Both the position numbers and the translations under genes were made by a program. The notes below the pieces were generated by a model, which was given only the letters and a program-made list of their open reading frames with translations, ran no database searches and had not been told where the DNA came from. A stretch of DNA of 64,000 bases from IMG/VR virus record IMGVR_UViG_3300021400_001287, positions 1 through 64,000 of that record; one strand, given 5' to 3'. Shown piece by piece: positions 1 through 22,236 of the stretch. Origin of the DNA: a virus (lineage: Duplodnaviria > Caudoviricetes). The stretch's first letter is position 1. Every line of letters starts with the position of its first letter.

Positions 1-406
1 TCTGAGCGACGAAATTGCCAAAGTCTTCTAACCCCAGCCGGCGTCGCAACATATTTGCTACGACCGACGGCAGATGATATGCCGAACTGCTGGCAAGATC
101 AGTAGCCGCCCACTCAATGTCTTCGCTGACGCCCAGCTTGCGACATAAATTATGAAGCGTGCTAAACTGGATATCCAATTGATCTAACTCATACGTATCG
201 AGATAGTCGAGCGAAACGGGGAGACTCGACACAAACGTCACTTCGGTGTCTGTTTTGAACGCGGAGGCAATTTTGTCGTGGAAACCTTTTCCGGTCAGAA
301 CGAGCGTGTGCGATATCTTGGCTGTCTGGCACAGATAACAGATGCAGCAGTAAGCAATGGCGTCGTACTGGTTGCCGTCACTCAGAAACAGTATCTCTTT
401 TTTCAT
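1..406 (-). CDS. hypothetical protein (runs off the window edge)
   Basis: ATG at 406 overlapping the RuvC 3' end; frame open to position 1 (MKKEILFLSDGNQYDA...). Confidence 0.6.
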   Translation of the reverse strand, partial: MKKEILFLSDGNQYDAIAYCCICYLCQTAKISHTLVLTGKGFHDKIASAFKTDTEVTFVSSLPVSLDYLDTYELDQLDIQFSTLHNLCRKLGVSEDIEWAATDLASSSAYHLPSVVANMLRRRLGLEDFGNFVAQ

Positions 407-935
407 CCAAATAGCCCTCTCTAAGCAAAAAAGCTATACCAACAGCGACCGCGTCGGATTCGTCATCCGTCTCGTAGACTTGGTCGCCAACATACGGTCG
501 CAAACATCGAGCCACATGTGGCTTGGTCGCGTTACCTTTGCCGGTGACGATGCGTTTGACTGTGGACGGGGCGAGTTCATACCAACCGGTATGTTTTACT
601 TGCCAGAGCGCAACATCAGCAACACCACCGACACGAAGCAGACGATCCGTGTCCGCGATATGCGAGATGACCGCTTTCTCGCGGACAAAGACCGTTGCGT
701 CTACGGGAGCCAGCAAATCAGTAAGCTGGTCGAAGAAGATAGCCAAGCCATGCCCCAGCACTTTCAACGTTCCGATGGGCAGGTTCAGCTTCTTGAGAAT
801 GGATACTTCGCGCTTGGTTGCGTCATAATGGAGCACAGCCAAACCGGAGCAATGATAGGAAAAGTCGCCGACCTACATGTTAAAATCCCCGTCGACGTGA
901 GGAATGGGTTTTTCACGACGTCGTTTCTTAGCCAT
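378..935 (-). CDS. ruvC: RuvC-like Holliday junction resolvase (in-frame TAG at codon 21, 873-875)
   Basis: GAGGTG RBS + ATG 935; FNM*VGDFSYHCSGLAV supplies the first catalytic strand missing from the track ORF; later motifs VREKA, PSTVKRIVTGKGNATK, DESDAVAVG. Confidence 0.85.
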
Positions 936-944
936 ATTGCCACC

Positions 945-1538
945 TCAAATGCAATGCTTGAAGACGTATTCGCTCCAGGATTCAAGTTTGCCAGCACGAT
1001 AGAGCTTCGCCAGTTCGTTCGACGTCATCCATTCGCCCGTCAGCTTCTCCGTCTCTTTAACTTGTACCGCATCGGCACCGTTGACTTCGATCAGATATAC
1101 GATACCGAGATGCACCGAATTGACGGGGGAGGACTCGTCTAAGATGTAGCCTTCACGGCTGATGGTCATCATGTTGTCCGGCGTGACGCCGACTTCTTCT
1201 TCGAGCTCACGGAACAACGTCGCTGTGATGCTCTCACCAGGGGCCATGTGTCCTCCAGTGCCGATGGAATACTTGCCCGTGAGACGGGAGTCGCCGGCCA
1301 AACGGTGGGTCACAAACACGTCCAAACCGCAGGTCAGTACGGCATACACAATGGGCTGCTTGTAGCTCGGATCGTTTTCGACCTCCCAGCGGTACTTAGC
1401 TTCGCCCTTCTTTGTGCAAAAGTCGATCTCGTCATCGTAAAAGAAATTGGCGACATCCGGGTCGTGGGTGACCGTATCAGACGGGATGACCCAGACCACC
1501 TCGTCACCGTATTTGGCTTTGAGTTCTTCAGTTGTCAT
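945..1538 (-). CDS. NUDIX hydrolase
   Basis: GGHMAPGESITATLFRELEEEVG Nudix box. Confidence 0.9.
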   Translation of the reverse strand: MTTEELKAKYGDEVVWVIPSDTVTHDPDVANFFYDDEIDFCTKKGEAKYRWEVENDPSYKQPIVYAVLTCGLDVFVTHRLAGDSRLTGKYSIGTGGHMAPGESITATLFRELEEEVGVTPDNMMTISREGYILDESSPVNSVHLGIVYLIEVNGADAVQVKETEKLTGEWMTSNELAKLYRAGKLESWSEYVFKHCI

Positions 1539-1560
1539 GTGCAACCTCCAATTTTCTCTT

Positions 1561-1600
1561 CTACTATACTCATATGGACATTTCAGAAAAATTGAGAGTG
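1561..1600 (-). promoter_or_regulatory. conserved 40-bp phage promoter motif, copy 1
   Basis: CACTCTCAA-N12-GTCCRTATGAGTATARTAG, identical spacing to copies at 22261 and 39109; just upstream of an RBS. Confidence 0.75.
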
Positions 1601-2206
1601 GTTCAAGAAATTTTTTTTCGACAAAAGTAGATGTGTGGCCATTGCACCAATGATATTGCCGAACGCAACGATGATAATGTGGCCAAGGTGGAACTGCCCG
1701 GCTGCGCAGAAGTAAAACATATCAGCAACGCAATGCTCGAATCCGCAGAGAATAAACGCGGGGATAGCGAGCAATATGCCAAGCGGCGATCCGTCTTGAC
1801 GATACTTCCACACGGCAAAGTGAACGAGCACGCCACACAAAAGTCCAGACACATACGTTTGCACCGCAGATTGGGCCATCCGCGTTTGTACGATGGAGAC
1901 AGTAGCTTCGATAATATGTGGCGAAGCTAACCGAATCAACACAGCGCACCCCGCTGCGCCGATATAATTGCCAACGAACATGATCAGCAAACTGCCAACG
2001 TAAGATACGTTCATCTCGTCGGCTAAATACCCCGCCTTACCCGTCACCAAGTTCATGCCACTACAGCAGATGGCGTACAGACCGACACAAAACAGAAATG
2101 CGCCCAGGAAATTATTGCCACACAAACAAGAAGAGCCCCCGCCGATGCCAATAAAGACACCAGCGGGGATAGAATAAAGGAACGTAGAACTGAAAGACTT
2201 TTTCAT
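1583..2206 (-). CDS. formate/nitrite transporter (FNT/FocA family)
   Basis: AGVFIGIGG, NLVTG, CGVLVH, FILCGFEHCVADMFY, GNIIG motifs; multiple hydrophobic helices. Confidence 0.85.
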   Translation of the reverse strand: MKKSFSSTFLYSIPAGVFIGIGGGSSCLCGNNFLGAFLFCVGLYAICCSGMNLVTGKAGYLADEMNVSYVGSLLIMFVGNYIGAAGCAVLIRLASPHIIEATVSIVQTRMAQSAVQTYVSGLLCGVLVHFAVWKYRQDGSPLGILLAIPAFILCGFEHCVADMFYFCAAGQFHLGHIIIVAFGNIIGAMATHLLLSKKNFLNHSQFF

Positions 2207-2721
2207 GCAACCTCCAACTCGACTATATGCCCGGTCACAATAGTTGCGGGGACATCGATGATGCGCTGATTTCGACTGCCGCAAAACGGCAACGTAATGT
2301 CACGTTCAGCAAGAATGAATGGACCGTCAACGAGAACGCTGCATAGATTAAGAACATACCTTGCGTCTTTCATGTTGGGCAGCTCTTCAAAATGATATCC
2401 AGTGTAAATCCACAGACTCTTTTCTGGGAACTTCGACACAAACCAGTCGGCGATCCTGGCAGTTGCGTCAGGCGAGTCGAATGGTTCACCTCCAGAAATA
2501 GTCAAACGACGGATATTCGGATCGGAGCAACGCTCTTCGAGTTGCTTCATAATTGCCGAGTCGAAAAGTTGCCCGCCATTCGGGTCCCATGTTGACGGAT
2601 TATGGCAACCTTTGCAATGATGGCTACAGCCTTGGAGGAACAGAGTCACTCCAAAGCCGAGCCCATTGCACACTTCGCATGGATCGATACCAGCGACGCG
2701 AAAATGGTTATCCATTCGCAT
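2203..2721 (-). CDS. nrdG: anaerobic ribonucleotide reductase activase (radical SAM)
   Basis: QGCSHHCKGCHN, ISGGEP, WIYTGY, GSRNQR; adjacent to nrdD. Confidence 0.95.
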   Translation of the reverse strand: MRMDNHFRVAGIDPCEVCNGLGFGVTLFLQGCSHHCKGCHNPSTWDPNGGQLFDSAIMKQLEERCSDPNIRRLTISGGEPFDSPDATARIADWFVSKFPEKSLWIYTGYHFEELPNMKDARYVLNLCSVLVDGPFILAERDITLPFCGSRNQRIIDVPATIVTGHIVELEVA

Positions 2722-3688
2722 GTCGAACCCTCATTTCTACCTCTTGCTGTTTACCTTCATTGAATGCCGCCAAGTAATCTCCGGACAAGTAGCCCGTTAC
2801 GCGACGCAGACGCTTGATGTCTTTGCTGCCACACATCGGGCAAGTATCGTTGATCTCGTCCGTGTATCCGCAATTCATACACATGTCGTTCGGGACGTTG
2901 ATGGCAAAGTACGGGATATCATGATCCATTGCGTACAACACCAGTTGTTCCAGCGCGTCAATATTGTGTTTGACTGTGGAGCCAAGCTCGACGTATGTGA
3001 TGCAACCAGCATTGGAGTAGCCAGTCAACTGGGATTCAATATCGATCTTCTTAAATGGATCGACTTTCTCCCAGACAGGAACGTGCATCGAGTTGGTGAA
3101 GTACTTCTTGTCGGACACGTTGGGAATTTCGCCATACTTGGCTTTGAATTTATTCATCGCCGTAAAACACAGGTTTTCTGAAGGCGTGAAGTACACCCCA
3201 AAATTCAACTTGTACTCATTCTTAAACTCTGCACACCGTGTCTTATAGAGTTGTTCGATCCGTTTTGCCAACTCCATGCCTTTGTCGGTCGTATGGTTAC
3301 ACCCGATCAGAATTTGTAACGCTTCAGCCAGACCGAGCTGCCCGATAGCCAATGTACCATGTCTCATTGCCGATTCAACAGTCTCGCCATCATAACCAGC
3401 CATAACGTTGTTTTCATACATGAACTTTGCACTGTCGGGAGACTGAGCGCAAATGTAATGATACCTCTCGATCAACATATCTTTGGCTTCGTGGATTTTT
3501 TGATCGAGTAACTTCATGAAACAGTCAACGATGGTTCCTTCGTCGTGAGCGGTGTCGACGCAACTCAGAATCTCTTCTTTCACTTCCATCGCCAACGTGG
3601 GCAAGATGATCGTAACGGGGCAGATATTGCCGCGCCCATCTTTAAGCTGGCCAAAACCGTTGATATCGAATCCATTGGACGTTCTACA
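2708..3688 (-). CDS. nrdD: class III ribonucleotide reductase, exon 2
   Basis: begins CRTSNG; TPSENLC, YFTNSMH, CxxC..CxxC and RRVTGYL glycyl-radical motif. Confidence 0.95.
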   Translation of the reverse strand, partial: CRTSNGFDINGFGQLKDGRGNICPVTIILPTLAMEVKEEILSCVDTAHDEGTIVDCFMKLLDQKIHEAKDMLIERYHYICAQSPDSAKFMYENNVMAGYDGETVESAMRHGTLAIGQLGLAEALQILIGCNHTTDKGMELAKRIEQLYKTRCAEFKNEYKLNFGVYFTPSENLCFTAMNKFKAKYGEIPNVSDKKYFTNSMHVPVWEKVDPFKKIDIESQLTGYSNAGCITYVELGSTVKHNIDALEQLVLYAMDHDIPYFAINVPNDMCMNCGYTDEINDTCPMCGSKDIKRLRRVTGYLSGDYLAAFNEGKQQEVEMRVRHANG

Positions 3689-4523
3689 CATATTATCCAC
3701 CGTCGCCGGTGGTACTGACTATATCATCCACAAATAATGTGGCCTTCCGCTTCGGGCGGGTGCCTATCTCCCGTCCTACTCCCGTACATTCATCCGGGAT
3801 AGTCGATACACTTTTCAATCAGATGGTTTTGTCCTAAAGAATGAGTCGTCTTGGTACACTATATCCCATTGCCCCAGATATAGCCCCCGCGTTTGATGCA
3901 ATACCCTAGTCGTAATGAATCGATGATGTTTTTCACCAAAGTGCGCCCTGCATGCTTCAACTGTATCGAAAAATAATACTTCGCCGGTGTCTACGTTTCT
4001 GCATTTTACAGATTTGGCACGTGGGTTTCGTGCTCCAAGTTTACTTTGGCTTATCTTTCTGGAAATTACTTCCATCTCATCATCTGTTTTGGATTGATAC
4101 GTGTTGCCTCCACACTTCGATAACGCATCTGTTTCATTGTAACCATTAGCAACGCTGTCGTAAGCACGTATCCAGTATTGCTCTTTCATATTCAGCTCAT
4201 CTTGAGTAGAAGCCGTATCAATGCACTCTATGCGAAACGCATTTCTGCCATACTTTCGTATTGCTCTCGCAAAATGGGTGTTCAATTTGCCATTCTACGC
4301 ATCACAAAGGTGACGCTTAAAGCGGTCTTCTATGGGGCGAATAGATTGACCGATGTAAACTTTATCGTTTACGTTGTTCGTAATTTTGTACACAAACATA
4401 AGTTACCTCATCTGATTGACTTAGCACGGTCTCAACTCAAAGAGTCCTAACCGTTAGCCCACAATAAGTGGACACCTCCGGGCGGAGTTCAAAAGGTTTT
4501 ACATGGGCTGTAGTGTTGCGCTT
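3689..4523 (-). mobile_element. group I self-splicing intron in nrdD (835 nt)
   Basis: exon 1 ends ATGGGU, pairing with intron GCCCAT (P1, U.G); intron CTACA pairs with exon 2 TGTAG (P10); intron ends in G (3689); splicing restores TMG|CRT. Confidence 0.92.
3815..4399 (-). CDS. intron-encoded GIY-YIG homing endonuclease (in-frame TAG at codon 35, 4295-4297)
   Basis: MFVYKITNNVNDKVYIGQS..RFKRHLCDA*NGKLNTHFARAIRKYG..E..WI..GYN; GAGG RBS. Confidence 0.9.
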
Positions 4524-5756
4524 ACCCATTGTACTGAACATTGTACGCTTATCGTTCGGGTCGTACCCAGCATTGCCAGACCAGTCTACATTGGCGTAGT
4601 TCGGATAAAGACGACGAGCTGTAGACTTGAGCGCTAAGCGGAACAAGTCATAGTTAGGATCTCCGGGCTTCTGGTTGACACCTTTCTGACATTGGAAGAT
4701 ACCGCAAGGGAAGATAGGAGTACGATGCAATTTACCGATGCCATCAACGGAAACGTCGAGCAAAGCCTTCGTAATCATGCGGCCTTCGGGCAACGTACAA
4801 GTGCCATAATTAATGGAAGTAAACGGGAGCTGACAACCGGAGCGCGATTGCAATGTATTTAAGTTGTGGTACATGCCTTCAACCGCTTGATGAATCTCTT
4901 TTTCGGTCATATCCATGGCATATTGCCATGCGCGGGGGGCCCAATACGTGTTGCGGTCATCGATGGGCGTTGCGGGGTTCGGATACGGGACATTATCTTC
5001 GGGCACATAAGTATCGTCGATATACTTCATACCGTCAACATAATGCTTGTAGAAACTCTTGCGGACGTAAGGGACCATCGTCCAGTCAAGATGTGTCGCG
5101 CTGACCCCTCCGAACTGTTGCAACGACTGCAACTGGAAGATAACGGCGACCAACTGGAATGCCGTGTTGACCGAGTTAGCGGGACGTACGTCAGTCTGGC
5201 GTGTGTTGAATCCGTTGGCAAGCAAGTCATCAAACGGAATACTGAGGCAGTTGTGGTCACCAATCGCGTAATGGTCGAGATCGTGGATGTATATCTCGTT
5301 GTTCAGATGATTGTTTCTGGACATCTCCGACATACATTCATCCAGCGCGTACTGCTTCATCACTTCACTGCTGACAGCACCAATACGTCCACCGAACGAC
5401 TTTTCATCCACATTCGCATTCTGGTTCTCCACGTTATTGGCAAGCAGTTTTTCACGCACACGCCGCATCAACTCAGTCTTGCTATTACGAATTCGACTGC
5501 GGTCGTTTCTATATATAATGTACTCTTTGGCCGTAGGTTTCAGCGACGTCTTCATGAGCTTCAGTTCGACCATGTTCTGAATCTGCTCGACGTCCAAGAT
5601 ATCGCCGGGAGAGTTCTCAATTTCGTCGGCAATACGTTCAACCGTATCCGGTTCATCCTGACCAGCCCGTTTCATTGCGGGTGTGATGGCATCGATAATT
5701 TTCTTTCGGCTGAACGGCTCGATGCGACCGTCCCGCTTTCTGATACGGGTTACCAT
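4524..5756 (-). CDS. nrdD: class III ribonucleotide reductase, exon 1
   Basis: ATP cone (IRKRDGR, VEQIQNMVE), IYIHDLD, HNCL, QFGGVS, NLNTLQSRSG, YPNY. Confidence 0.95.
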
Positions 5757-5757
5757 T

Positions 5758-10338: not shown

Positions 10339-13300
10339 TTAAGCCTCCTTCGCTGTGATGACTTCATCATGGTGAAGCACCACGACATATTCTTGCACCC
10401 AGAGTTCTTTGGTGCCGGGAATGGGAACGGATTTACCGTCGATGTAGGTGTATCTGGGTCGTTTATCGTATTTGCCGACGACGATGACATCGCCCGCATC
10501 CAGCGGCTGGGATTTGAACGTGTCTTTCTTTATCTTGATGGTGCCGGATTTGCCAGTCGCGGCGGAATAAAGCGACGCTTTCGGGGAATACTTCGTCTCC
10601 ACCGCCATAACGACATATGTTTGCCGACAGTCGGGGAAGACGGAGATGGGGGAGCCGTAGTGGATTGACTCAAAAGAGAGCTGATCGTACGGAGAGATGG
10701 GTTCATCCGGGCAACTGCCTTCGAACTGTGTCAGAGCCGCAATGCGCTTGGTTCGTGTCGAGTCCACATACGTCTTCTTGTACTGCATGCCTTCGCCACA
10801 CCTGAATTGCCGCCACACTTCCATCAGCTTTCCGTTGTGGCCAAACTCTCTGAAGTAGTCCATCTTGATGAGCACTTCGATATTGGTAGCATTGAAAGCC
10901 CGTCTGGTGTCGAGGTCCAGGAGGAGGTCGACGAAGGTGGGATAGAAGTTGTCCTTCATATTAAAGAGCTCTTCTGCCACAGCCATGGACAAATTGCGGA
11001 TGGACGGGAGCGCGTCCGACACGGTGTTCTGGTCGGTGTCGTAAGAGAAGTAGCGGTTGTCCTGTCTGAAATGACACGGTGCGATGGTGATGTTGAAACC
11101 ACGACGCATCTCATCTTTGATGAGAGCAACACGTTCTTTGTCGCCCTTCGCTGTGTAAGCGTCGAGGAGTGTGGTGTAATACTGGAGTGGGAAGTGGGCT
11201 TTGAGATACGCGCCGTAGATGGCATCGAGAGCAACTGCGACAGAATGTGAATTACTCGTCACGATGCCGTCGTTTGCAACAAAATTGTGATTCGGATCAG
11301 CCATCTGGACATCGTATACTATGTCGCGACCATCGTACTCAATCGATGCAATTCGCACAGCATCAATATAGTCATAATGAACACTATAAAGCCAATCGCC
11401 GGAACGTAAGTCATAAAGATGTTTCTCGCCGTTCGGGGTCGGGAATTTATGGTTCGATGTACATCGAATACTATGCCCATCGTCCAAAGTAACGACATAT
11501 ACTGGACGATACCCGGCATGTCTCACGCTGACGATATTGTTCTCGACTAAGTGCATAGATTCGTCCATGGAACGAACGGGGTCCCAGTCGGAACGTCCTT
11601 GCAACTCGTCTAAATAATAATCATCAACGCGCCGTACACCAATCATCGTGTCGGCGGTCACGCACGCATTGAACGAATAGCTTGACGAATTATAAAGAAT
11701 CTGCCACACCATCTCGGCGTTCTCTTTCGCTTTTGCATCCGACTTCTCACCGTGTTCTTTCTGATACGCAATGAAGCCGGGGATAAAGCGTTCGTGTGCA
11801 GCTTCGATGACCTTGACTTTTTTCTTCGAGATGGCTTTGATGATCGGATACGTCTCTTCAAGCGGAAAACCGGCGGCTCCGAGGCACTTCATGACGTCTT
11901 CTTGATACAACAGCCACGACGATCCAGACGAATCGTTGTGCAGCTGATCATCGAAAGCCGGGACGCCGTAAGAAAACTTCTCGCGGGCGAGGAACTTGTT
12001 CACCATGGACTTGAAACCGGGTCGAATAGCGGCGACAAAAGCCGACATATCTTGGAGCGACCGGGGTTTGTATTGCATCAGCTTCTCAATGGTCTTCGCG
12101 CCCTGGCACTGGTTGACACCCATGGTCAAACCCTTCGCGAACACGTCCCACGTCTTGGGGTCATTCTTCGTCCGCTCGATAACTTCTTCGGCAGAAAGAT
12201 AGCGAAGGCCAGCTTTGGCCGAAGCGGCGGCATTGATAGCGACAACCGTCACGACGAGCTCGTCATTTTTAACATATCCGAACGCATCCGCCGTGTATCC
12301 ATCGATCACAGTGCAATATGCGACGTCTTTCTTGGTCTTCGCCGCGACACGGATGATGCCGATCTCGGCTTCAATGTCGCCATCGTAGAGCAAAAATCCA
12401 CACGGAGCTTGGGACTTCGACACGACAATACCACGGTACGGCTCAGACTCGACGACGTACTTCATATATTGCTCATCGACGTAGTCTTCAATGAAGATGG
12501 ACTCTTTTTCATCTTCGTCGTCCGCATTCTGGAGCGCTCTTTCATACTGTTCGATCTGCTTGGAGACAACAGCTTGCACGTCCATCGGCAAATTCTTCGC
12601 TCTGGCGTACATTCTGAACGCGGATTTGGGTTTCTGAGTGCCATAAGCGATCATCGGGGCGACATGACCTTTGCCCATCAACTGTTCTTGTGCGGCGGCA
12701 AATATCTTCTGATCGGATACATTGCTATCTATATCGGGAAGGCTAGTTTTCAGCCGTTCGGGAGTCATGAATCGACCGGGGTACAGCGTGACGGGCAACT
12801 CGAAACGATCCAGTCCCGTCATGCCGAGCAATTTATTCGAGAAAAACGAACCAGCAGAGCCACGACCGGAGTTTGTGTACGTTCCGCCCATTTTCTGACC
12901 GAGCGCAATGATATCCGAGTTAAGCAAGAAGTACACCGCTTGCCCTTCTTCGATAACTGGTCCGCACTCCTGCGCCCACATGTCATTCCAGCGCCGTTCG
13001 GCTTCTTCTTTCGGCAAATTGGTGCTGTACTTCTTGAACGCTTCACGGATCCGTCGCTCATACTCCACCGCGCACTGCTCACGATCCATGCCACGGTATG
13101 TTTTCGGCAACTTTCGCTCCCGGCTGAACACCAAGTCATCAAACGTAAGCGCAACATCCGTATTAGCGATGGCTTCGGCAATCTCGGACGCATTCAGAAC
13201 GCCCTGTGTCTGAAAACGGACAACGACCGTCTTCTCGTCCGGGTAGTCTTCGTACACGTTGTCGTCAAACTCGAAGTCTTCATCCAGTTTCTTTGCCCCG

Positions 13301-13986
13301 GACTCTTCTCTGAGTATCTGTCGCTCCATCCGTTGCTCCGGATAAATGTAATGGCTGTCCAGACCAACGATGAGCGGCACATTGTACTTGTAATGAAGCT
13401 CCAGTACGTGTCGATTGACCTCTCTTTGCCACGTCGTGTTGTGTGCTTGTACTTCGAGATACAACGACTCACCAAAATGAGAAAACATCTCAGCAAAGAG
13501 CGCGTCCATGGTGTCTTCGCCATCGTAATGCCACTTGACATCGCCACTCTCACGATTCGGTTTGCCCCAGAAAGCGACACAAGCTGTAGTGATGAAGACA
13601 TCTGACGGATGTAGAGTCCGCAGAAGCTCCATGTCCACGCGGGGCTTGCCGTAAAACCCGGTTTTGTTCGCTTCGGCCAGCATCTTGTTGATCTGGCGGC
13701 GTCCAGCTTCGTTTCGAGCCAATATCAAGATGTGGGCGTTGGTGTCATCCGTCTCGTGTCGATCCTTCACCCAGTACGCTTCGACACCAAACACGAATTT
13801 CAATCCATATTGCTCACACATCTCCCAACAGCGGAGATAATTGCCCTGATAACCATGCTCAACAGACGTGACAACTCTCTGACCCAGCTCGACAGCGCGT
13901 TTGCAGTAGTCTTCATACGAGACGTGGCTGTCCTTGAACGACGCAAACACATTAGAATAGTACTTATGGCTGTGCAGGTTCTGCAT
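10339..13986 (-). CDS. dnaE: DNA polymerase III alpha subunit with intein
   Basis: PHP domain (HSH, EHG, DSHY), GRGSAG, PDID, AAIRPG, YSFNA..SHS. Confidence 0.95.
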   Translation of the reverse strand: MQNLHSHKYYSNVFASFKDSHVSYEDYCKRAVELGQRVVTSVEHGYQGNYLRCWEMCEQYGLKFVFGVEAYWVKDRHETDDTNAHILILARNEAGRRQINKMLAEANKTGFYGKPRVDMELLRTLHPSDVFITTACVAFWGKPNRESGDVKWHYDGEDTMDALFAEMFSHFGESLYLEVQAHNTTWQREVNRHVLELHYKYNVPLIVGLDSHYIYPEQRMERQILREESGAKKLDEDFEFDDNVYEDYPDEKTVVVRFQTQGVLNASEIAEAIANTDVALTFDDLVFSRERKLPKTYRGMDREQCAVEYERRIREAFKKYSTNLPKEEAERRWNDMWAQECGPVIEEGQAVYFLLNSDIIALGQKMGGTYTNSGRGSAGSFFSNKLLGMTGLDRFELPVTLYPGRFMTPERLKTSLPDIDSNVSDQKIFAAAQEQLMGKGHVAPMIAYGTQKPKSAFRMYARAKNLPMDVQAVVSKQIEQYERALQNADDEDEKESIFIEDYVDEQYMKYVVESEPYRGIVVSKSQAPCGFLLYDGDIEAEIGIIRVAAKTKKDVAYCTVIDGYTADAFGYVKNDELVVTVVAINAAASAKAGLRYLSAEEVIERTKNDPKTWDVFAKGLTMGVNQCQGAKTIEKLMQYKPRSLQDMSAFVAAIRPGFKSMVNKFLAREKFSYGVPAFDDQLHNDSSGSSWLLYQEDVMKCLGAAGFPLEETYPIIKAISKKKVKVIEAAHERFIPGFIAYQKEHGEKSDAKAKENAEMVWQILYNSSSYSFNACVTADTMIGVRRVDDYYLDELQGRSDWDPVRSMDESMHLVENNIVSVRHAGYRPVYVVTLDDGHSIRCTSNHKFPTPNGEKHLYDLRSGDWLYSVHYDYIDAVRIASIEYDGRDIVYDVQMADPNHNFVANDGIVTSNSHSVAVALDAIYGAYLKAHFPLQYYTTLLDAYTAKGDKERVALIKDEMRRGFNITIAPCHFRQDNRYFSYDTDQNTVSDALPSIRNLSMAVAEELFNMKDNFYPTFVDLLLDLDTRRAFNATNIEVLIKMDYFREFGHNGKLMEVWRQFRCGEGMQYKKTYVDSTRTKRIAALTQFEGSCPDEPISPYDQLSFESIHYGSPISVFPDCRQTYVVMAVETKYSPKASLYSAATGKSGTIKIKKDTFKSQPLDAGDVIVVGKYDKRPRYTYIDGKSVPIPGTKELWVQEYVVVLHHDEVITAKEA
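11251..11664 (-). mobile_element. mini-intein (138 aa) in DnaE
   Basis: CVTADT start, TSNHKF block B, VYDV..HNF block F, TSN|S end; excision restores YSFNASHS. Confidence 0.9.
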
Positions 13987-13996: not shown

Positions 13997-14737
13997 TTAT
14001 CGAATCCAAATGGGGCAATGAGCGCATTGTGAGCGCACATCGCAGAGGAAACGGCAATGAAAGTCGTCTTGATGGTAATTGTAGTCCATGTCCATACAGA
14101 TAGCGTCCACCGTCGACACCGCCCAGACTTCGGTTGCCTTCATCTGCTCCATGGTGAACTCTTCTTTGATCAATTCACCCGTTTTGAGCATGTTGAAAGC
14201 CAATGTTTTGGGGTATTCGCCGTATTGGTCTTTGACATGAGCCGCGTAGATGTACAACTGGTTACGGAAGCGGTCGATGTCTTTCTTCATCGACGCTGTG
14301 GACTTGGTTTTATGGTCGACGACCATCAATGACCCGTCTTCCTGGCTTCTCAATACCAAGTCAGCAATGCCATCGAACTCATACGGTCCAATGGGTACCG
14401 TGAAACGGCGTTCGGACGAGACAATGTCATAGCCGGGGAAGCCGTTGAACGACGCGAAGTAATTCGAGCACATAACACGGGCTTTTTCACGATAGTTCTT
14501 CATGAACGGGGGAAACTCATGCTCAATGGCCGTGTCGTAACCGGCTTCCCACTCCATTTGCAACTGTTCGGGCTTCAATTCGCCCTTTGCCCATTTATCG
14601 AGCAATGAGTGAGCGAAGGTACCGTAATCCGAGAACGCGTTGCCAGATCCATGGCGATGGTCTTCGGCCAGATAGGTGAGATAGTAAGCGTAGGGACAAG
14701 CGAGGTATGTCTCCTACTTGGAGAACGACCAGGACAT
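13997..14737 (-). CDS. PD-(D/E)XK exonuclease, AddB/Cas4-like (in-frame TAG at codon 8, 14714-14716)
   Basis: AGGAGG RBS; MSWSFSK*ETYLACPY..YGTFAH..GIADL..DHKT..QLYIY..C..C..C. Confidence 0.9.
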
Positions 14738-15186: not shown

Positions 15187-15196
15187 GGTACCCTCC

Positions 15197-15394: not shown

Positions 15395-15409
15395 ATGAAA
15401 ATTCCTCCT

Positions 15410-16622: not shown

Positions 16623-16698
16623 TGGTACCGCCGGCGGGAGTCGAACCCGTAACCGCTGGGTTTGGGCCAGCTCCATATGCCAATTCTGGTACGGCGGC
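16623..16698 (-). tRNA. tRNA-Leu(CAA), short variable loop, C33
   Basis: cloverleaf GCCGCCG..AGAATTGGCATAT..GCTGG-CCCAAAC-CCAGC..TTCGACT..A-CCA. Confidence 0.8.
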
Positions 16699-16701
16699 GA
16701 A

Positions 16702-16778
16702 TGGTGGACGCACTTGGCTTCGAACCAAGACCTTCACGGTTATGAGCCGTGCGCTCTGACCAGTTGAACTATGCGTCC
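16702..16778 (-). tRNA. tRNA(CAT), Ile2-like
   Basis: GGACGCA..CACGG-CTCATAA-CCGTG..A-CCA, resembles Firmicute tRNA-Ile2. Confidence 0.85.
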
Positions 16779-16792
16779 AGAAGTGATAGAAT
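16764..16792 (+). promoter_or_regulatory. sigmaA promoter for antisense small ORF
   Basis: TTGAAC-17 bp-TAGAAT with TGn extension; predicted start ~16799. Confidence 0.55.
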
Positions 16793-16850
16793 AAAATAGA
16801 CCGGCAAGTGAATTGCTTCATCTCAATAAAAGGGAGGTGAAACAGGTAGG

Positions 16851-17006
16851 GTGTAGTCCAACATCGGGCTTTTGTTTGTGATCAAAGTGCTTTGGAAGCT
16901 GTATGTCCGGCTCTCAACACTTGACGAAAAGCCAACGGCTGGGCAATATATCATCCATGACATCGTAGACTAGATGATAGATGGGCTCTTTCTGATCCTG
17001 GAATAA
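16851..17006 (+). CDS. candidate 51-aa hydrophobic peptide with 2 in-frame TAGs (type I toxin-like)
   Basis: GGAGGTG RBS, GTG start (11-nt spacing); M*SNIGLLFVIKVLWKLYVRL..HDIVD*MIDGLFLILE. Confidence 0.5.
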
Positions 17007-17035
17007 AGAGTTGGGGTGCGAAACTTGCCGGTCAT

Positions 17036-17113
17036 TGGTCTTCACGGAGAGATTCGAACTCTCACTGACAGCAGCTTAAATGCCGTGCCTACTGCCAATT
17101 GGGCTACGTGAAG
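17036..17113 (-). tRNA. tRNA-Leu(TAA), short variable loop
   Basis: CTTCACG..AATTGGCAG..CGGCA-TTTAAGC-TGCTG..TTCGAAT..A-CCA. Confidence 0.8.
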
Positions 17114-17177
17114 ATGGAGTGGCCAGCCGGAGAGGAGATGGTCCCGGCCAGCCGATAAAATACCCCAAGCCAAGGGG

Positions 17178-17252
17178 TGGCAGAGCGTGCTGGAATCGAA
17201 CCAGCGAATGAGGGAGTCAAAGTCCCTTGCCTTACCGCTTGGCTAACGCTCT
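17178..17252 (-). tRNA. tRNA-Gln(TTG)
   Basis: GCCAAGCGGTAAGGC D-arm, CT-TTG-AC loop, G73-CCA. Confidence 0.92.
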
Positions 17253-17596
17253 ATATGTATCGGCAATTTTTTGAATTATTGCCGATAAGTATGCATCAAT
17301 ACACAAATGCAGTTAAGAAACAGTTCCAGGTTAAGAACACTATCCAGATGACGTCGAGTGGTCGGCTCCGTTCGCGCATTGCTTTACCAATTTCCCAGAC
17401 GATGAGCAACGCGAGAAAGCAGATGAGCCAGAATTTCAGTGTCGTCATTTAATAACCTCGAAGATGCAATTCCACAGATGCGCCACCGTCCAACCGAGAA
17501 AGGAGAAAGCCCACATAACCCAGAACCCAGGATGTTCTTTCTTCGCCCAATAGTAACTATTTGCGATCCAAAAAACCAGCATGACAACCCAGAAAA

Positions 17597-18091
17597 TCAA
17601 GAGATACATTCATTCACCCCCTCGTACCCCGCCATTCCGTCGAACCACTCATTCATCTCGTCCATCAATTCGGGATAATGGTCTTCGACGTACTTGAGAT
17701 AGAGATTCAGGTTTTCGACACGGGCTTTGAGATGCTCGTACTCGCTCACGTCAATATCTGAAAACGTAAGCTCGGACATGTTCGTCAGTTCATCGGCGAG
17801 TCGGTTGAAGAAGTTGGTCGACACGTCATCGTAAGTCTCGAATCCGGTGAGCAACATCTTCTTGGTGAGTTCGGACATTGCCGCGATGAACTTATGCTTG
17901 TCTTTTCTCGACACACGGCAACGGATGAAGACGAACGGCGTGCCATCCATTACCCATTCTTCATAGAAGCGGGGCGTGATGCCATGCTCGACGAAGATCT
18001 GGTCACCTTTGTATTCCGGGACATCGAAATACAGGAACTGTGTCGAAAATGGTGATCGGGAATAGAGCTCCATGTAGTTTGCCATAGTCAA
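17597..18091 (-). CDS. hypothetical protein
   Basis: RBS-led ORF inside the tRNA region. Confidence 0.7.
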   Translation of the reverse strand: MTMANYMELYSRSPFSTQFLYFDVPEYKGDQIFVEHGITPRFYEEWVMDGTPFVFIRCRVSRKDKHKFIAAMSELTKKMLLTGFETYDDVSTNFFNRLADELTNMSELTFSDIDVSEYEHLKARVENLNLYLKYVEDHYPELMDEMNEWFDGMAGYEGVNECIS

Positions 18092-18113
18092 TTCCTTCCT
18101 ATTATAATAGAGT

Positions 18114-18189
18114 TGGTGTCACCCCGTGGTAACGATCCACGCTCTGCGAATTTATAGTCCGCCGCTTTCACCGTGTAAGCTAGGGTGGC
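18114..18189 (-). tRNA. atypical tRNA, anticodon ATA (Tyr-like or degenerate)
   Basis: cloverleaf with CCA; GCGGA-CTATAAA-TTCGC; non-canonical T loop ATCGTTA; one acceptor mismatch. Confidence 0.6.
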
Positions 18190-18193
18190 AGAG

Positions 18194-18260
18194 TCGGGGT
18201 GGTGAGAGTCGAACTCACGACGCCGTGGATTCACGTACGTTGCCGCCGCGCTACACCCCG
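18194..18260 (-). tRNA. degenerate tRNA-Pro-like element lacking a normal anticodon loop
   Basis: CGGGGTG/CACCCCG acceptor and TTCGACT T arm intact; anticodon arm CGTG-AATC-CACG. Confidence 0.5.
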
Positions 18261-18378
18261 CCGGTGCGGTTTGCCAACGATATCTGTTGCGCACCAGATA
18301 TCAAGGCCATTCAGCAAAGTCTATCGGAGCGACACCGCCAGCCCCGCTTGTATCTGTAAATGACTTTGCTTACTTCGT

Positions 18379-18452
18379 GGAGTCCAGTTGGAGTCGAACC
18401 AACAAATTAGCGCTGTTTGATGCGCCCGCACTGCCCATTGTGCTATGGACTC
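18379..18452 (-). tRNA. degenerate tRNA with 8-nt anticodon loop
   Basis: GAGTCCA/TGGACTC acceptor, GCAC/GTGC D stem, loop ATCAAACA, TTCGACT; no encoded CCA. Confidence 0.5.
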
Positions 18453-18461
18453 AAGTTTCAA

Positions 18462-18491
18462 TTGACTAACAGTGCTTACCCATGCTATGAT
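18462..18491 (+). promoter_or_regulatory. sigmaA promoter for antisense membrane ORF
   Basis: TTGACT-18 bp-TATGAT with TGn extension. Confidence 0.6.
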
Positions 18492-18564
18492 GCCAACAGG
18501 TCAACCCTTAGTCGTGTAACCAGCCATTCTTTCCCCTCCTAACAAAGGAAAGGATCAAGGAAAC

Positions 18565-18837
18565 ATGAATAAGTATTTGGCTGACGAAAGATTGGCGTCG
18601 TAGATTGGCGTCGTGCTGGGCTTTATGGGCTTCTTCTTCTGGTGGGCTGGTGCCGCAGGAACATTGATGGCATGGCTCACTTGGAAGAAGAATCCATCTG
18701 TCTACAATGGCTTCGTGCTTGCGTAGAATTTGAATGGGTCGTACCGCCCAGCCGCCGCGCTCGTTGCGCTCGTCGTTGTATACGTTGAGTTCCTGGGCAC
18801 ATGCTCGACACATGAGCAAACACTGCGTGTCAATTGA
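18565..18837 (+). CDS. 90-aa membrane protein with 2 in-frame TAGs (18601, 18724)
   Basis: own promoter and AAGGA RBS; RLAS*IGVVLGFMGFFFWWAGAAGTLMAWLTW..FVLA*NLNG..ALVALVVVYVEF. Confidence 0.6.
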
Positions 18838-18848
18838 GTAGGGGAAAT

Positions 18849-18880
18849 CGGGGAGCTTCGAGCTTCCCCGTTTCTTTCTT
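18849..18880. terminator. hairpin between convergent genes
   Basis: CGGGGAGCT-TCG-AGCTTCCCCG followed by TTTCTTT. Confidence 0.6.
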
Positions 18881-20669
18881 AGAACATCTGCTTGGCAATT
18901 GACTGATAAACGCCATATTCCGGTAAAGAGTCGGCACGGACAAGGGGTTTGGTCAACCCCGTCTTGTCCCACGAATACGTATACTGATCGCCGACATCTT
19001 TCTGGTACACTCTGCGCGAATCTCCACAGTAACAACATTCAATAAACGTGTTATTACCGCTATATCTGGTCTTCGTCACACGCAGGTCGGGGCGTTCTAC
19101 AATGATCACATTGGATGCCAAGTTGGTAAGATACTTTGTGCCAGCAACATCATCGTTTGTGATGGTTGCGTCTTGTTTGATCTTGCGGGGGTGTGCAACA
19201 ACGATGACGTGGGCACTGTATCTCATCGCAAAGCGTTTGAGTTCCGCCATAAACTTCGCTTGTGCCCGATATTCATCTTCTATTGCATCAATAAGAGCAG
19301 TCATCATATTGTCGACAATGAACAGCTTGGCTCCTTTTCGCTTGGCCATTGACTTAAACACAGATAGGATCGAATCCGCAATAGATTCAGAGACATCAGC
19401 AGACGAATCAAAGAGATAGAGTTTGCCATGCATCCATTCGAAGATACGCTGGCGAACGGGCATCGGAACAACGGGTATCTGGCTTCCAGTCAAGTTGTCT
19501 TGTTGAAGTGTCAACCAGTCTGAGCCAGCCGCCTGGAGTAAAAGCCAGCGTTGGAATAGATCGGGGCTCAGTTCACCAGAATACGCAACACATGTATACC
19601 CCTGCTCGATCGCATTGAGCATCAAAGTACCACATAACGTACTTTTTCCGTGGCCGGGAGCTCCCGAAAACAGCGACACAGCTCCTTCTTCGAGCCCGTT
19701 GATGGCTTTTTCGAGCTTCGGAATGCCAGTTTTAATGCGGGGAATGGTTGTTGGATCGACATATTGGATTTCCGTGACATCAATGACACCTTGAATTGGT
19801 ACTTCTGAATTATTCTTCCAGCATTTAACCAATTCTTCCGCTCCGTACTGGATCAGAATATCGTTCGCGTCTTTGCACCCATTCGGATACTCTTCAACGA
19901 CCCAGCAACGCTCTTCTCCAAGACGGGTTGCAAGTGTCTTGATCATCTTCCGCCCCGGCGGATCATTATCTCCGAAGAGAATGATCTTGTCGAATTGCCC
20001 GAGCCAGTCATAACAACTTTCCAACCACTGAAAATTCTCGCAACCAGCAGGGACAGAGACAACATTGCGAATTCCAGCTTCATAAAGAGACAGGCAGTCA
20101 ACTTGTCCTTCGCAAATGCAGAGCGGCTCACCCGGTTTACACAGATCCATTCCGAACAATACCGGCGCGGCTCCCGCTTCAGCCCACTCTTTCCGCTTAC
20201 CGGGATTGGCAACCGGAGCTCGATACTTCGCGTACACCAGCTCGCCTTCAACGTAGAACGGCCAGAGGATGTTCCCGTTTGTGTCGGCTCCTACCTGGAA
20301 TTTGTCCAGTGTCTCCGTCGAAATTCCACGACCGGCAAAATACTTATCGATGGTCTCGGTTCTCGGCTGCGGAACGATGGACAGCGGTTTAAATTGCTGC
20401 GACACGGAATTGATGTTCAGCGCTTCACCGAAGTGTCTGAGCAACCGGACCCACCCACCACGGGCACCGCATTTACCACGGTGACAATAATACTGGCCGG
20501 TGTCGAGCGATACATAGAATGTTCCATGATCGCCGTTTTCACCGCCTTTACAGAACGGACAGGTTTCTGCGATCAGCTCTCCGTGTTGCACTTTGTATGG
20601 AGCAATGTGTCGATCCGCGAATGCCATGATGTCCAACTCGGAGGGCACCGAGTAGAACGGCTTTTCCAT
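18879..20669 (-). CDS. primase-helicase (T7 gp4/Twinkle-like)
   Basis: Zn finger CPFC..CHRGKC, TOPRIM EGQVD/DND/KDAND, Walker A GAPGHGKS, VVAHPRK. Confidence 0.92.
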   Translation of the reverse strand: MEKPFYSVPSELDIMAFADRHIAPYKVQHGELIAETCPFCKGGENGDHGTFYVSLDTGQYYCHRGKCGARGGWVRLLRHFGEALNINSVSQQFKPLSIVPQPRTETIDKYFAGRGISTETLDKFQVGADTNGNILWPFYVEGELVYAKYRAPVANPGKRKEWAEAGAAPVLFGMDLCKPGEPLCICEGQVDCLSLYEAGIRNVVSVPAGCENFQWLESCYDWLGQFDKIILFGDNDPPGRKMIKTLATRLGEERCWVVEEYPNGCKDANDILIQYGAEELVKCWKNNSEVPIQGVIDVTEIQYVDPTTIPRIKTGIPKLEKAINGLEEGAVSLFSGAPGHGKSTLCGTLMLNAIEQGYTCVAYSGELSPDLFQRWLLLQAAGSDWLTLQQDNLTGSQIPVVPMPVRQRIFEWMHGKLYLFDSSADVSESIADSILSVFKSMAKRKGAKLFIVDNMMTALIDAIEDEYRAQAKFMAELKRFAMRYSAHVIVVAHPRKIKQDATITNDDVAGTKYLTNLASNVIIVERPDLRVTKTRYSGNNTFIECCYCGDSRRVYQKDVGDQYTYSWDKTGLTKPLVRADSLPEYGVYQSIAKQMF

Positions 20670-21211
20670 TAACCCGCCTCCCCGAAATACGCTCTGTACG
20701 ATTTCCCGATTCTGCGTTTCTGCCATTGATACTGGCCGGTTGTCATGTTCTGCCGGGATTCAATATCTCTGGGCGGATACCCCTTCAGGATCATCTGAAC
20801 GGCCAGCCGGTCCTGCGGAGTCAGTGTCGACATCCACTTGTCCAGATCGATGTGTAAAATGATTTCTTCTTCCATATTCCACGGCGTCTTTCCGTCAACA
20901 TCCACACTGTCGTCGTCAACCAGCTTGATGTCGCACTTCTTCTTCGGGTTCCGGTGAATGCCATGCTGATTGATAAACTGATTGTAGAGGTGATACCGGA
21001 CGCTCGTGCGGAGGTACTTATGCACGGTGGGCGTCGATCCGAACGCGCCAGCTTCCATCTTGCGATGCCACTTGAGGAAGCCGATGATCGCTTCCTGCAA
21101 CACGTCTTCGTAGTACACCGAGTAGGGCATATGGCGTTCGTTCATGAAGTCGATCGCGCAAAGCCGGATGATGTTTGCGTTGTCCCGCACGAGCTTCTCT
21201 TCCGTCGTCAT
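20669..21211 (-). CDS. sigma70/ECF-like phage sigma factor
   Basis: EDVLQEAIIGF region 2; C-terminal LTPQDR..GY..RDI helix-turn-helix. Confidence 0.7.
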   Translation of the reverse strand: MTTEEKLVRDNANIIRLCAIDFMNERHMPYSVYYEDVLQEAIIGFLKWHRKMEAGAFGSTPTVHKYLRTSVRYHLYNQFINQHGIHRNPKKKCDIKLVDDDSVDVDGKTPWNMEEEIILHIDLDKWMSTLTPQDRLAVQMILKGYPPRDIESRQNMTTGQYQWQKRRIGKSYRAYFGEAG

Positions 21212-21230
21212 GGTATCACCTCCACGTCAA

Positions 21231-21629
21231 TCAGTTGCCGCTGAACAGGTCTTCCACGTTGTTGCTGTTGTTGTAGCTGTTGCCACCATTGTAGTTGGTA
21301 TTGCCATTGCCATTGTTCGGCTGGTAGGTGAGTGACTCGATGCTGTTGGCTTTCATCGTGATGTTGACGCCCGCGGTGCCGTCCTTCTTATTGAAGGGCT
21401 TGACGCAAACCGAGCCGGTCGCCGCCAGCTTGTTGCCCTTCTTCATCCGGGCGAGTGTATCCCACTGCGGACCCCAGACAGACACTTCATAGAAGTTGGT
21501 GATGTAGTTCCCGCTGTCGTCTTTGAAGGGCGTATGTACGGCAACATTGGCGCTGGCCATCTGTCGGCCATTGTATTCCCCGATGCGGGGATCAGCCACC
21601 AAGTTGCCGATGATCGTGGTATTAACCAT
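21231..21629 (-). CDS. ssb: single-stranded DNA-binding protein
   Basis: IIGNLVADP, TNFYEVSVWG, KKGNKL, N/G-rich tail. Confidence 0.9.
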   Translation of the reverse strand: MVNTTIIGNLVADPRIGEYNGRQMASANVAVHTPFKDDSGNYITNFYEVSVWGPQWDTLARMKKGNKLAATGSVCVKPFNKKDGTAGVNITMKANSIESLTYQPNNGNGNTNYNGGNSYNNSNNVEDLFSGN

Positions 21630-22236
21630 TGGGGTAAGCCTCCTTGAGCGCTTTCAAAATTCTGGACTGTGTCGCCGTATCAGTAATGTCACGGAAATTC
21701 ATGGAGCCATTGTTATGTTTGGCAATAAGTTCACCAGCCGCTTTGCGCTGTTCAAGCGTCAGAGCGGAGACAATTCCCACGACTTCATCGGCAAAAGCGG
21801 ACGAAGCCTTCGGCTGGGGTTTATTGTTGCTGTTGTTATTGCTGACTTGATCGAACTGATCGGCTTCCACGATGTCGAGCACCATCATGTAGAGATACCG
21901 ACGTTGATAGGTCTCCACACCACCGAGCAACTGTACCGCGTTCGCGCCTTTGAGTTCCAGATCTCGCATGGGAGAGGTGAACGTGAGTGTTTCTTCCGGC
22001 TTCTCGATGTTTACGAGAGTCAGCGTCGCTTCGGTGTCACTGAAAGAGATGAGGTCACAGAGCATAAGCTCATTGAAAATTTCCGTCTTCGGCGGGACGA
22101 TGTCATCCAGCTCGAAGTAATCGTACTTGGAGAACGTGTTGCGTCCAGACTTCTTCACGTTCTTCCGCTGGAACATCTACCGGGCTGTCTCCAGCTTGGC
22201 GTAAATGTTCGTCTGTTCCGGGGTTTTCGTGGCCAT
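21622..22236 (-). CDS. ERF-family ssDNA-annealing protein (in-frame TAG at codon 20, 22177-22179)
   Basis: AAGGAG RBS + ATG 22236; NIYAKLETAR*MF..KKSGRN..YFELDDI..GGVETYQRRYL. Confidence 0.88.

Follow-up and report, generated by a model that had tools for sequence, protein, structure and literature searches.

The replication arm of a 91-kb gut phage (378-23319; 24 genes, 6,922 codons) contains exactly four in-frame TAG codons, each in a gene for DNA cutting or recombination: a RuvC-like resolvase (codon 21), a GIY-YIG endonuclease (codon 35), a PD-(D/E)XK exonuclease (codon 8) and an ERF annealing protein (codon 20). It is fairly probable that these codons form a translational lock, the release of which would depend on a suppressor tRNA. 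The window analysed is a stretch of 64,000 nucleotides, positions 1 to 64,000 of the IMG/VR record IMGVR_UViG_3300021400_001287. The preliminary description of this DNA had reported one TAG in each of these four genes and none in DnaE, NrdD, PNK-ligase, primase-helicase, ThyX, PcfJ or integrase; all four TAGs were found where it had placed them, and the codon count bore out the second statement. In-frame TAG is absent from DnaE with its mini-intein (10339..13986, minus strand), which serves as the main contrast gene, from the primase-helicase (18879..20726, minus strand) and the tyrosine integrase (22312..23319, minus strand), and from both NrdD halves, NrdG, PNK-ligase, ThyX, the RemA-like and NUDIX proteins, the FNT transporter, PcfJ, sigma, SSB and the small hypothetical genes of the arm. 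The TAG genes adjoin or overlap these TAG-free neighbours. All four TAGs fall within the first 35 codons (P = 8e-4), a point that the preliminary description did not make, and each sits within the conserved domain of its family. An ATG with a Shine-Dalgarno site precedes the TAG in each gene, and the only restart backed by such a site after the TAG in the four genes is a weak one at Met21 of ERF. Two further candidates were rejected: both TAGs in the PcfJ frame precede the true start (ATG 16483, with AGGAGG), and the TAG in ORF 2-580 was set aside with the start at 406.

The probability that all four TAGs would fall in those four genes by chance is 2e-4 when reckoned over codons or over Leu sites and 9e-5 when reckoned over genes; adding the integrase to the class brings it to between 5e-4 and 1e-3, and all of these values carry the caveat that the class was set after the data were seen. 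Indeed the integrase, a DNA-cutting recombinase without TAG, counts against the lock and makes the functional class partly post hoc. An explanation by chance, with the class defined in hindsight, draws on the fact that the class rests on four events, on the many arm genes of no known function, and on the fact that the term DNA-cutting would suit the integrase or the DnaE PHP domain just as well. It is nevertheless extremely unlikely, as P does not exceed 1e-3 when the integrase is counted in, and the pattern is seen again in close relatives, in weakly recoded members of a sister clade, in an HNH gene outside the window and in the late nucleases.

Judged from homologue alignments, TAG is decoded as leucine through the phage's own tRNA(CTA). 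At 87 of the 147 sites scored, which are mostly from the sister clade, Leu predominates in the homologues at the TAG column, against a background Leu frequency of 8%; genetic code 15 (TAG = Gln) was rejected, Gln being the majority at only 6 of the 147. The suppressor tRNA, with anticodon CTA, lies at 50157..50236 on the plus strand (ARAGORN; Rfam tRNA, 50.3 bits), and its D-arm is similar to that of the phage's own tRNA-Leu(CAA). The first late gene follows 20 nt further on, so that the tRNA stands at the head of the late operon. TAG is carried by 20 of the 31 late genes genome-wide, including TerL, portal, virion protein and tail genes, and 57% of the late TAGs lie within the first 50 codons versus 13% of Leu codons (P = 3e-8). 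The first two late genes (50256..52260, plus strand) encode a metallophosphatase-type exonuclease (phrog_284) and then a phrog_3314/endonuclease-like protein, each with TAG as codon 19. Outside the replication arm, TAG is present in these two late nucleases, the off-window HNH and TerL; all recognisable nucleases of the genome have TAG, and a search of the TAG-free genes recognised no nuclease among them. A second recombinase (genome 84941-86140) has a TAG at codon 5 that is ambiguous, homology beginning only at residue 59.

The RuvC-like Holliday junction resolvase (378..935, minus strand) was identified by Pfam RuvC (PF02075; 25.9 bits, cut-off 22.2) and by a match to phrog_159, and its ATG is preceded at 6 nt by GAGGT. 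Its TAG (873-875) aligns with the Leu of the 'KILAxDLS' strand, three codons before the catalytic Asp of 'DLS', and only with read-through of the TAG does the 'GDFS' strand of this protein line up with the 'DLS' of full-length RuvCs. The PD-(D/E)XK exonuclease (13997..14737, minus strand), which is Cas4/AddB-nuclease-like, has its TAG at 14714-14716, codon 8 from ATG 14737, with AAGGAGG 7 nt upstream of the start; its stop overlaps the dnaE start. PDDEXK_1 (PF12705) matches it with E = 1.2e-23 over residues 4-240 (profile 1-246 of 247), numbered on the 248-residue reading from ATG 14743. In the TAG column, 13 of 20 aligned relatives have Leu and 3 of 20 have TAG.

The ERF single-strand annealing protein (21622..22236, minus strand; PF04404, E = 1e-11, residues 11-144, profile 1-142; phrog_155 over residues 3-189) has its TAG at 22177-22179, with an ATG immediately after it. 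For this gene alone, the TAG-ATG could instead be a stop-restart that yields a form 20 residues shorter early and the full-length protein late, an isoform switch and not a lock. Besides the adjacent ATG, such a restart would have a weak GGAG 12 nt upstream of it, and the Met is kept in about 40 relatives; this Met, however, is also found at that column in full-length ERFs without TAG, and its conservation is partly a matter of ascertainment, as the gene calls of relatives without it would begin further on and escape the pattern. A restart would also lose the N-terminal helix 'NIYxKLxxxR' before the TAG, which is conserved in full-length homologues, and the other three TAG genes have no restart codon, so that the switch is decidedly unlikely. 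The preliminary description had further placed a promoter directly before ERF and suggested that its amber might be polar on ssb, sigma and primase. A promoter scan of the integrase-ERF gap found none, only TTGAAA and TATAAT with a 14-nt spacer, and whilst the ERF stop overlaps the ssb start, the SSB gene has its own strong Shine-Dalgarno site, which leaves polarity speculative.

The GIY-YIG homing endonuclease (3815..4399, minus strand; Pfam GIY-YIG 4e-11 over residues 2-88), with TAG at 4295-4297, lies within an interruption of nrdD (3692..4521, minus strand; junction '..STMG' / 'CRTSNG..'). The two NrdD halves match Pfam NRDD positions 2-269 and 264-562 and so join up in the profile; at the equivalent place an uninterrupted NrdD, that of L205, has 'ATMGCRT'. 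This intervening sequence is a probable group I intron; it gave no match to Rfam Intron_gpI at the gathering or E-value threshold, possibly because the inserted 585-nt ORF disrupts the model. The GC content of the GIY-YIG ORF is 0.42 versus about 0.51 in neighbouring genes, and the HNH gene is likewise foreign in composition. This composition, together with the mobile nature of GIY-YIG and HNH elements and the existence of fully recoded relatives, would suit a historical origin in which the TAG genes were acquired from wholly recoded relatives and brought their TAGs along. Such an origin is very unlikely for the set: RuvC, the exonuclease and ERF are native in GC and codon usage, RuvC and the exonuclease keep the gene order of relatives, and genes imported out of a heavily recoded genome should have several scattered TAGs and not a single 5' one.

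In close relatives (DnaE 50-95% identity; Logan and ENA assemblies), whose state was read indirectly, from the termini of predicted proteins and hence from truncated gene calls, RuvC and ERF are cut at the N-terminus and DnaE is whole. All 14 RuvC homologue clusters at 41-99% identity are without the N-terminus that bears the catalytic Asp, and of the 46 ERF clusters nearest to this phage (50-97% identity) about 40 begin exactly one codon past the TAG. Each of the 17 DnaE clusters listed (67-95% identity) reads as a full-length protein in the standard code, in a search that was length-limited such that genes split below 668 residues lay outside its reach. About 15 DnaE clusters at 44-56% identity begin 19-51 residues in, and these late starts might reflect a 5' TAG of their own. 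Scans of IMG/VR, JGI metagenomes and GTDB with DnaE alignment gave, among the matches listed, only relatives at or below 52% identity, and nothing closer than 38% (DnaE) or 28% (TerL) was found among GenBank phages. G001 (IMG/VR, 35% GC) was dropped as a relative, being a distant standard-code phage without ERF, and the missing exonuclease N-terminus of L091 (DnaE 52%) is uninformative because the contig ends there.

A sister clade, with DnaE about 43% identical, has its tRNA-CTA directly after dnaE (18 loci). There TAG is found in DnaE at 18 of 23 loci and in the primase-helicase at 14 of 16, and also in ThyX, NUDIX and RemA-like genes; it takes up 2.1% of Leu sites in DnaE, 5% in the primase-helicase and about 9% in ThyX, and none of 351 in the integrase orthologues. 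TAG in the polymerase genes of relatives had been named beforehand as evidence against the restriction to nucleases, and its presence here makes 'nucleases only' a property of this lineage and not of the family. What stands of the gating proposed in the preliminary description is that the TAGs are real and conserved, that every recognisable nuclease has one and that the tRNA heads the late operon. The enrichment by functional class is present in this phage (9e-5 to 1e-3), whereas TAG in the sister clade is not restricted to nucleases. The set of genes that carry TAG tracks the location of the tRNA gene: where it lies after dnaE, TAG enters the replication genes too. Of the conserved replication genes that were aligned with those of this phage, the least recoded members (L148, L199 and L106) have TAG only in RuvC and/or the exonuclease; L106 also has an N-terminal TAG in a non-nuclease RNA ligase and possibly in PhoH-like, protease-like and nucleotidyltransferase genes.

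The sister clade also bears on tolerated drift, according to which TAG can be read late, so that a Leu-to-TAG change survives only where early expression is dispensable, and mainly at the 5' end, where a failure of read-through costs least and yields no harmful fragment; the nuclease and recombination genes would then simply be the dispensable genes of the arm. The spread of sister-clade TAG over many gene classes fits this, as do the RuvC TAGs, which occur at all 13 loci and are scattered along the gene, and the ERF and GIY-YIG TAG columns, which are not conserved Leu positions. The exonuclease does not behave in this way: at 16 of 19 sister-clade loci it holds a single TAG, always in the first 21 codons, in one of four different Leu columns (one of them common to this phage), with none at its other 15 or so Leu sites, whilst at the clade's TAG use of about 5% drift should leave only about one gene in four with a 5' TAG. 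In addition, the ERF TAG keeps to one column across 50-97% identity, though one base change would remove it, and the small hypothetical arm genes, probably equally dispensable, are TAG-free. Drift is on these grounds unlikely.

If the four codons are a lock, the TAG-free genes (replisome, nucleotide synthesis, SSB, sigma and integrase) would be those needed before tRNA(CTA) accumulates, whilst RuvC, the GIY-YIG endonuclease, the exonuclease and ERF are probably on the same transcripts. Translation would end after a short harmless peptide when the suppressor is missing and would run to the full enzyme once it is present, such that the activities that cut DNA, resect ends, anneal strands and resolve junctions would appear alongside the terminase and capsid proteins. 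The sequences themselves show where the TAGs lie, that they are conserved and read as leucine, and where the tRNA is. Here we infer the timing of tRNA(CTA), the co-transcription with neighbours and the cost of early enzyme synthesis, and the same applies to the timing, toxicity and recombination-dependent replication of the preliminary description. A stronger proposal, to which we give somewhat less than an even chance, is that the single 5' amber is an old and actively maintained lock specific to cutting and recombination enzymes in early operons. It would have been long kept (the same exonuclease column is TAG at about 43% DnaE identity) and re-created at nearby Leu codons when lost, with the position of the tRNA deciding which other genes have TAG. 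If the four codons do act as a lock, code switching would time single hazardous enzymes independently of their operon, beyond a split into early and late blocks, and this would account for the shortened resolvase, exonuclease and annealing-protein genes that standard-code annotation gives for such phages. A natural test of the timing model is the contrast between this phage, whose tRNA is at the late operon and whose replisome is TAG-free, and the sister clade, where the tRNA follows dnaE and replisome genes have TAG.

Two-component recombination modules combine an exonuclease, an annealing protein and an SSB, as in lambda Red, P22 Erf and SPP1 G34.1P/G35P/G36P, and their genes are ordinary early genes. 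The PD-(D/E)XK exonuclease, ERF, SSB and RuvC of this phage similarly make up a complete recombination and concatemer-processing set; unlike in those modules, three of its four members have a 5' amber, and SSB has none. In phages with a suppressor tRNA, in-frame stops have been found to be concentrated in structural and lysis genes and the integrase to avoid the recoded stop, whilst replication genes keep to the standard code in certain clades and vary elsewhere; the endonuclease of a group I intron within an early gene is preferentially recoded, and a delay until late was proposed for it (Borges et al.). The proposed lock extends a published idea and is no new mechanism, both the general idea and the intron-endonuclease case having been published already (Borges et al.). 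This phage resembles that late-biased recoding in its tRNA(CTA), in TAG within structural and packaging genes and in its TAG-free replication genes and integrase. It differs in that TAG is Leu and not Gln, and in that the set thought of as gated comprises replication-module genes for a resolvase, an exonuclease and an annealing protein; nuclease, resolvase and recombination genes go unmentioned in the text of Borges et al. The strongly 5'-proximal TAGs and a TAG gene set that follows the tRNA gene position set it further apart. In T4, translation of homing endonucleases, both intron-encoded and free-standing, is delayed by hairpins that sequester the ribosome-binding site: I-TevI in td and I-TevII (GIY-YIG) in nrdD are present on early/middle transcripts and translated only late, a restraint that reportedly safeguards splicing of the intron and expression of the host gene (Edgell, Gibb and Belfort 2010, PMC2988022). 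T4 I-TevII and the phage described here share the same architecture, a GIY-YIG ORF inside nrdD; the T4 hairpin is bypassed by a late promoter, whereas here a nonsense codon would impose the block and a tRNA would relieve it.

The complete phage genome is 91,208 bp long, with a 107-bp terminal repeat and 50% GC, and the window is its first 64 kb. A gene map drawn from a codon-usage model with TAG read through comprises a minus-strand arm (from ~37.2 kb down to 378, wrapping to 91.1-84.9 kb) and, both on the plus strand, a block of small genes (37.6-50.1 kb) and a late operon (50256-84543), the last starting 20 nt after a tRNA with the anticodon CTA (50157-50236, found by ARAGORN and Rfam). By TerL and DnaE the relatives are large siphoviruses of Firmicutes, and contigs that contain related DnaE loci were binned with ruminant and rabbit gut Clostridia, including Acutalibacteraceae and Christensenellaceae. 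At sites with at least three aligned relatives, mostly from a TAG-recoded sister clade, the majority residue opposite TAG was Leu at 87 of 147 sites, Ile at 14 and Gln at 6, compared with a background Leu frequency of 8%; in this phage, Leu is the residue aligned with the TAGs of RuvC and the exonuclease. tRNA(CTA) and the phage tRNA-Leu(CAA) have a D-arm in common, and the suppressor tRNAs of the sister clade measure 84-86 nt and have a long extra arm. The tRNA cluster of the phage also holds two odd members on the minus strand (18114-18189 and 18379-18452), both above the Rfam tRNA threshold, one of which ARAGORN assigned an anticodon ATA ('Tyr') and the other a four-base anticodon (caaa). 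A sigma-factor-like gene (phrog_5767/3512; 48967-49395, plus strand) ~760 nt upstream of tRNA(CTA) carries TAG at codon 32 and could act as a feed-forward step for late transcription; the replication arm contains a second sigma-like gene (20669-21211), which is free of TAG.

Four minus-strand genes of the replication arm carry one TAG each, as the preliminary description had proposed, and their identities hold (Pfam RuvC, GIY-YIG, PDDEXK_1 and ERF, with matching PHROGs): RuvC (378-935; TAG 873-875, codon 21), the GIY-YIG endonuclease (3815-4399; TAG 4295-4297, codon 35), a PD-(D/E)XK exonuclease (13997-14737; TAG 14714-14716, codon 8) and ERF (21622-22236; TAG 22177-22179, codon 20). A feature absent from that description is that all four TAGs fall within the first 35 codons (P = 8e-4). 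In every case the TAG lies inside the family domain rather than upstream of the true start, and an ATG with a good Shine-Dalgarno site precedes it. The GIY and YIG motifs are upstream of the TAG; in RuvC the catalytic Asp is three codons past it and the next start 11 codons beyond; and since the next start codon of the exonuclease is residue 45, its first Fe-S cysteine and conserved 'SxSxL..CP' segment need read-through. The ERF profile match begins nine residues before the TAG, and the 'NIYxKLxxxR' helix encoded upstream of it is common to full-length ERFs. No Shine-Dalgarno-supported restart follows the TAG in the four genes, except for a weak GGAG 12 nt before M21 of ERF, where the TAG-ATG junction could allow restart.

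The best-supported reading, and one that we consider probable, is a translational lock imposed by suppressor-dependent TAG. Gene packing suggests that the four genes lie on transcripts shared with their neighbours: 9 nt separate NUDIX from the start of RuvC, and the stop codons of the exonuclease and ERF overlap the starts of dnaE and ssb, respectively, each of which has a strong Shine-Dalgarno site of its own (AAGGAGG for SSB). Before the suppressor accumulates, ribosomes would halt after 7-34 codons of the four genes, whilst TAG-free neighbours on the same transcripts would be translated normally. From what is generally known of phage recombination modules, the benefit for RuvC, the exonuclease and ERF may be that end resection, annealing and junction resolution are coupled to packaging. 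The preliminary description had further placed ERF first behind a promoter, with possible polarity on the genes downstream. The gap between integrase and ERF does contain TTGAAA, a 14-nt spacer and a perfect TATAAT, but a promoter scan reported no promoter in front of ERF, its best minus-strand match lying upstream of integrase.

Other genes of the arm, namely DnaE, both halves of NrdD, NrdG, PNK-ligase, ThyX, RemA-like, NUDIX, an FNT transporter, PcfJ, primase-helicase, the sigma-like gene, SSB and integrase, have no in-frame TAG. Two TAGs upstream of PcfJ are non-coding, one of them overlapping the AGGAGG of the real PcfJ start. For the 24 arm genes at 378-23319 (6,922 codons; 540 Leu-plus-TAG sites), the chance of finding every one of the four TAGs in this class of four genes was 2e-4 by codon or by Leu site and 9e-5 by gene, or 5e-4 to 1e-3 with integrase added to the class; these figures are upper bounds on significance because the class was chosen after the fact. 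Pure chance is highly unlikely as an explanation, for the pattern repeats in relatives. Two other features of the arm may be recorded here. The FNT gene (1583-2206, minus strand; formate/nitrite transporter family, Pfam 2.8e-27), which adjoins nrdG and nrdD, is an unusual auxiliary gene for a phage replication arm, and DnaE contains a mini-intein (Pfam Intein_splicing match, about 11251-11637, minus strand); relatives' DnaE alignments break at residues 783 and 911, and many lack the insert.

Close relatives were compared at the protein level, by where their standard-code protein predictions begin and end. For DnaE, each of the 17 clusters listed at 67-95% identity reaches both protein ends, and two shorter ones (68-69% identity) begin near residue 410, in a search blind to fragments shorter than 668 residues. 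RuvC lacks its first 28-80 residues, catalytic Asp included, in 14 of 14 clusters (41-99% identity), the 'MKILAxDLS' start being present only in standard-code RuvCs below 37% identity. Of the 46 closest ERF clusters (50-97% identity), about 40 have as their first residue precisely the Met next to the TAG column on its 3' side; ERFs further away begin at the helix upstream, and in one full-length relative the TAG column is occupied by Leu. For the exonuclease, the closest representative (62% identity) is likewise cut short at the N-terminus. To judge by their lengths, contigs of 45,277, 39,675 and 36,118 bp appear to combine an intact DnaE with a cut ERF or RuvC. Further out, some 15 DnaE clusters (44-56% identity; P0046, P0058, P0080-82, P0085, P0087, P0090, P0096 and others) begin 19-51 residues in, without the PHP 'HxH' start, which could reflect a 5' TAG in the dnaE of those phages.

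Scans with a DnaE alignment yielded 23 loci of the sister clade, whose DnaE is ~43% identical and whose genes are largely the same and similarly ordered; TAGs were counted only in regions aligned to this phage. TAG was present in RuvC at 13/13 loci (about 9% of Leu sites), the exonuclease at 16/19 (about 5%), primase-helicase at 14/16 (5%) and DnaE at 18/23 (2.1%), as well as in ThyX (about 9%), RemA-like (about 7%), NUDIX (about 5%) and SSB (2/67 Leu sites); integrase had none (0/351). Relatives at this distance thus do have TAG in the polymerase, the outcome that the preliminary description had set against its own reading, and confinement of TAG to nucleases is no family rule. Sister-clade integrase ORFs (L080:2999-4012, L110:4281-5288 and L147:4155-5168) are about 335 codons long and carry a TAG at codon 311-317, at the end of homology; this TAG is probably the real stop when the host code is used, and a spare one follows about 20 codons on.

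Three patterns in the sister clade support a lock. The exonuclease TAG is always in the first 21 codons and nowhere else in the gene, at four different Leu columns ('SFSK*', 'KLQ*', 'QCP*' and 'AFK*'), the first being that of this phage. Among aligned conserved replication genes, the least recoded members have TAG only in RuvC (locus L148), RuvC and exonuclease (L199) or exonuclease (L106), L106 and L148 having TAGs in other genes of the locus. Lastly, replisome TAG accompanies a tRNA position within the replication module: in 18 loci (e.g. L080, L090, L108, L110, L177, L185, L195 and L199) dnaE is followed on the same strand, after 35-80 nt, by tRNA(CTA), whereas here a TAG-free replisome goes with a tRNA at the head of the late operon. 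Tolerated drift, biased to the 5' end so as to keep its cost minimal, would account for the spread of TAG in the sister clade, but it fails on the maintained 5' TAG of the exonuclease and on the fixed ERF column, and we regard it as doubtful.

Elsewhere in the genome, 20 of the 31 late genes carry TAG, and the first 50 codons account for 57% of the 30 late TAGs but for 13% of Leu codons (P = 3e-8). Among the 101 genes that do not belong to the late operon, 11 have TAG, which in ten cases falls within the first 50 codons. At several genes (window 29549-29854, minus, and 59306-59587, plus; genome 79267-79524 and 81964-82968, both plus) a TAG lies 1-6 codons before a TAA or TGA stop and may be a former stop with a nearby back-up. 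The two genes that open the late operon, encoding a metallophosphatase-type exonuclease and an endonuclease-like protein, both have TAG at codon 19, and TerL has one at codon 21. An HNH endonuclease outside the window (genome 86118-86744, minus strand) has TAG at codon 15. PHROG searches of 20 further TAG-free early genes turned up no nuclease, with matches to a methyltransferase, an anti-repressor and DNA-binding proteins; every recognisable nuclease in the genome therefore has a TAG, and the sole TAG-free enzyme that cuts DNA is integrase, an exception already reported for recoded prophages (Borges et al.). The HNH gene, with a GC of 0.43, and a second tyrosine recombinase gene, whose start it overlaps, together span genome 84941-86744 on the minus strand (L002:941-2744); in the recombinase a Shine-Dalgarno-supported ATG is followed by an uncertain TAG at codon 5, homology beginning only at residue 59. 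Import of TAG-bearing genes from phages recoded throughout would suit GIY-YIG and HNH, with their low GC, but not RuvC, the exonuclease or ERF, and is improbable as the explanation.

Late-gene-biased recoding, integrase avoidance and a recoded intron endonuclease have been published (Borges et al.). The literature searched described no 5' amber lock on resolvase, exonuclease and annealing-protein genes inside a replication module, nor its long-term maintenance with shifting position or a link to tRNA position. The GIY-YIG gene is the case nearest to published work, as Borges et al. described a recoded intron endonuclease in an early gene and proposed its late production. Here nrdD is interrupted exactly between 'STMG' and 'CRT', where an uninterrupted homologue reads straight across; Rfam recognised no ribozyme in the intervening sequence. 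In T4, I-TevI, I-TevII (a GIY-YIG enzyme in nrdD) and I-TevIII are delayed by hairpins that hide the ribosome-binding site, a restraint reported to protect splicing (PMC2988022).
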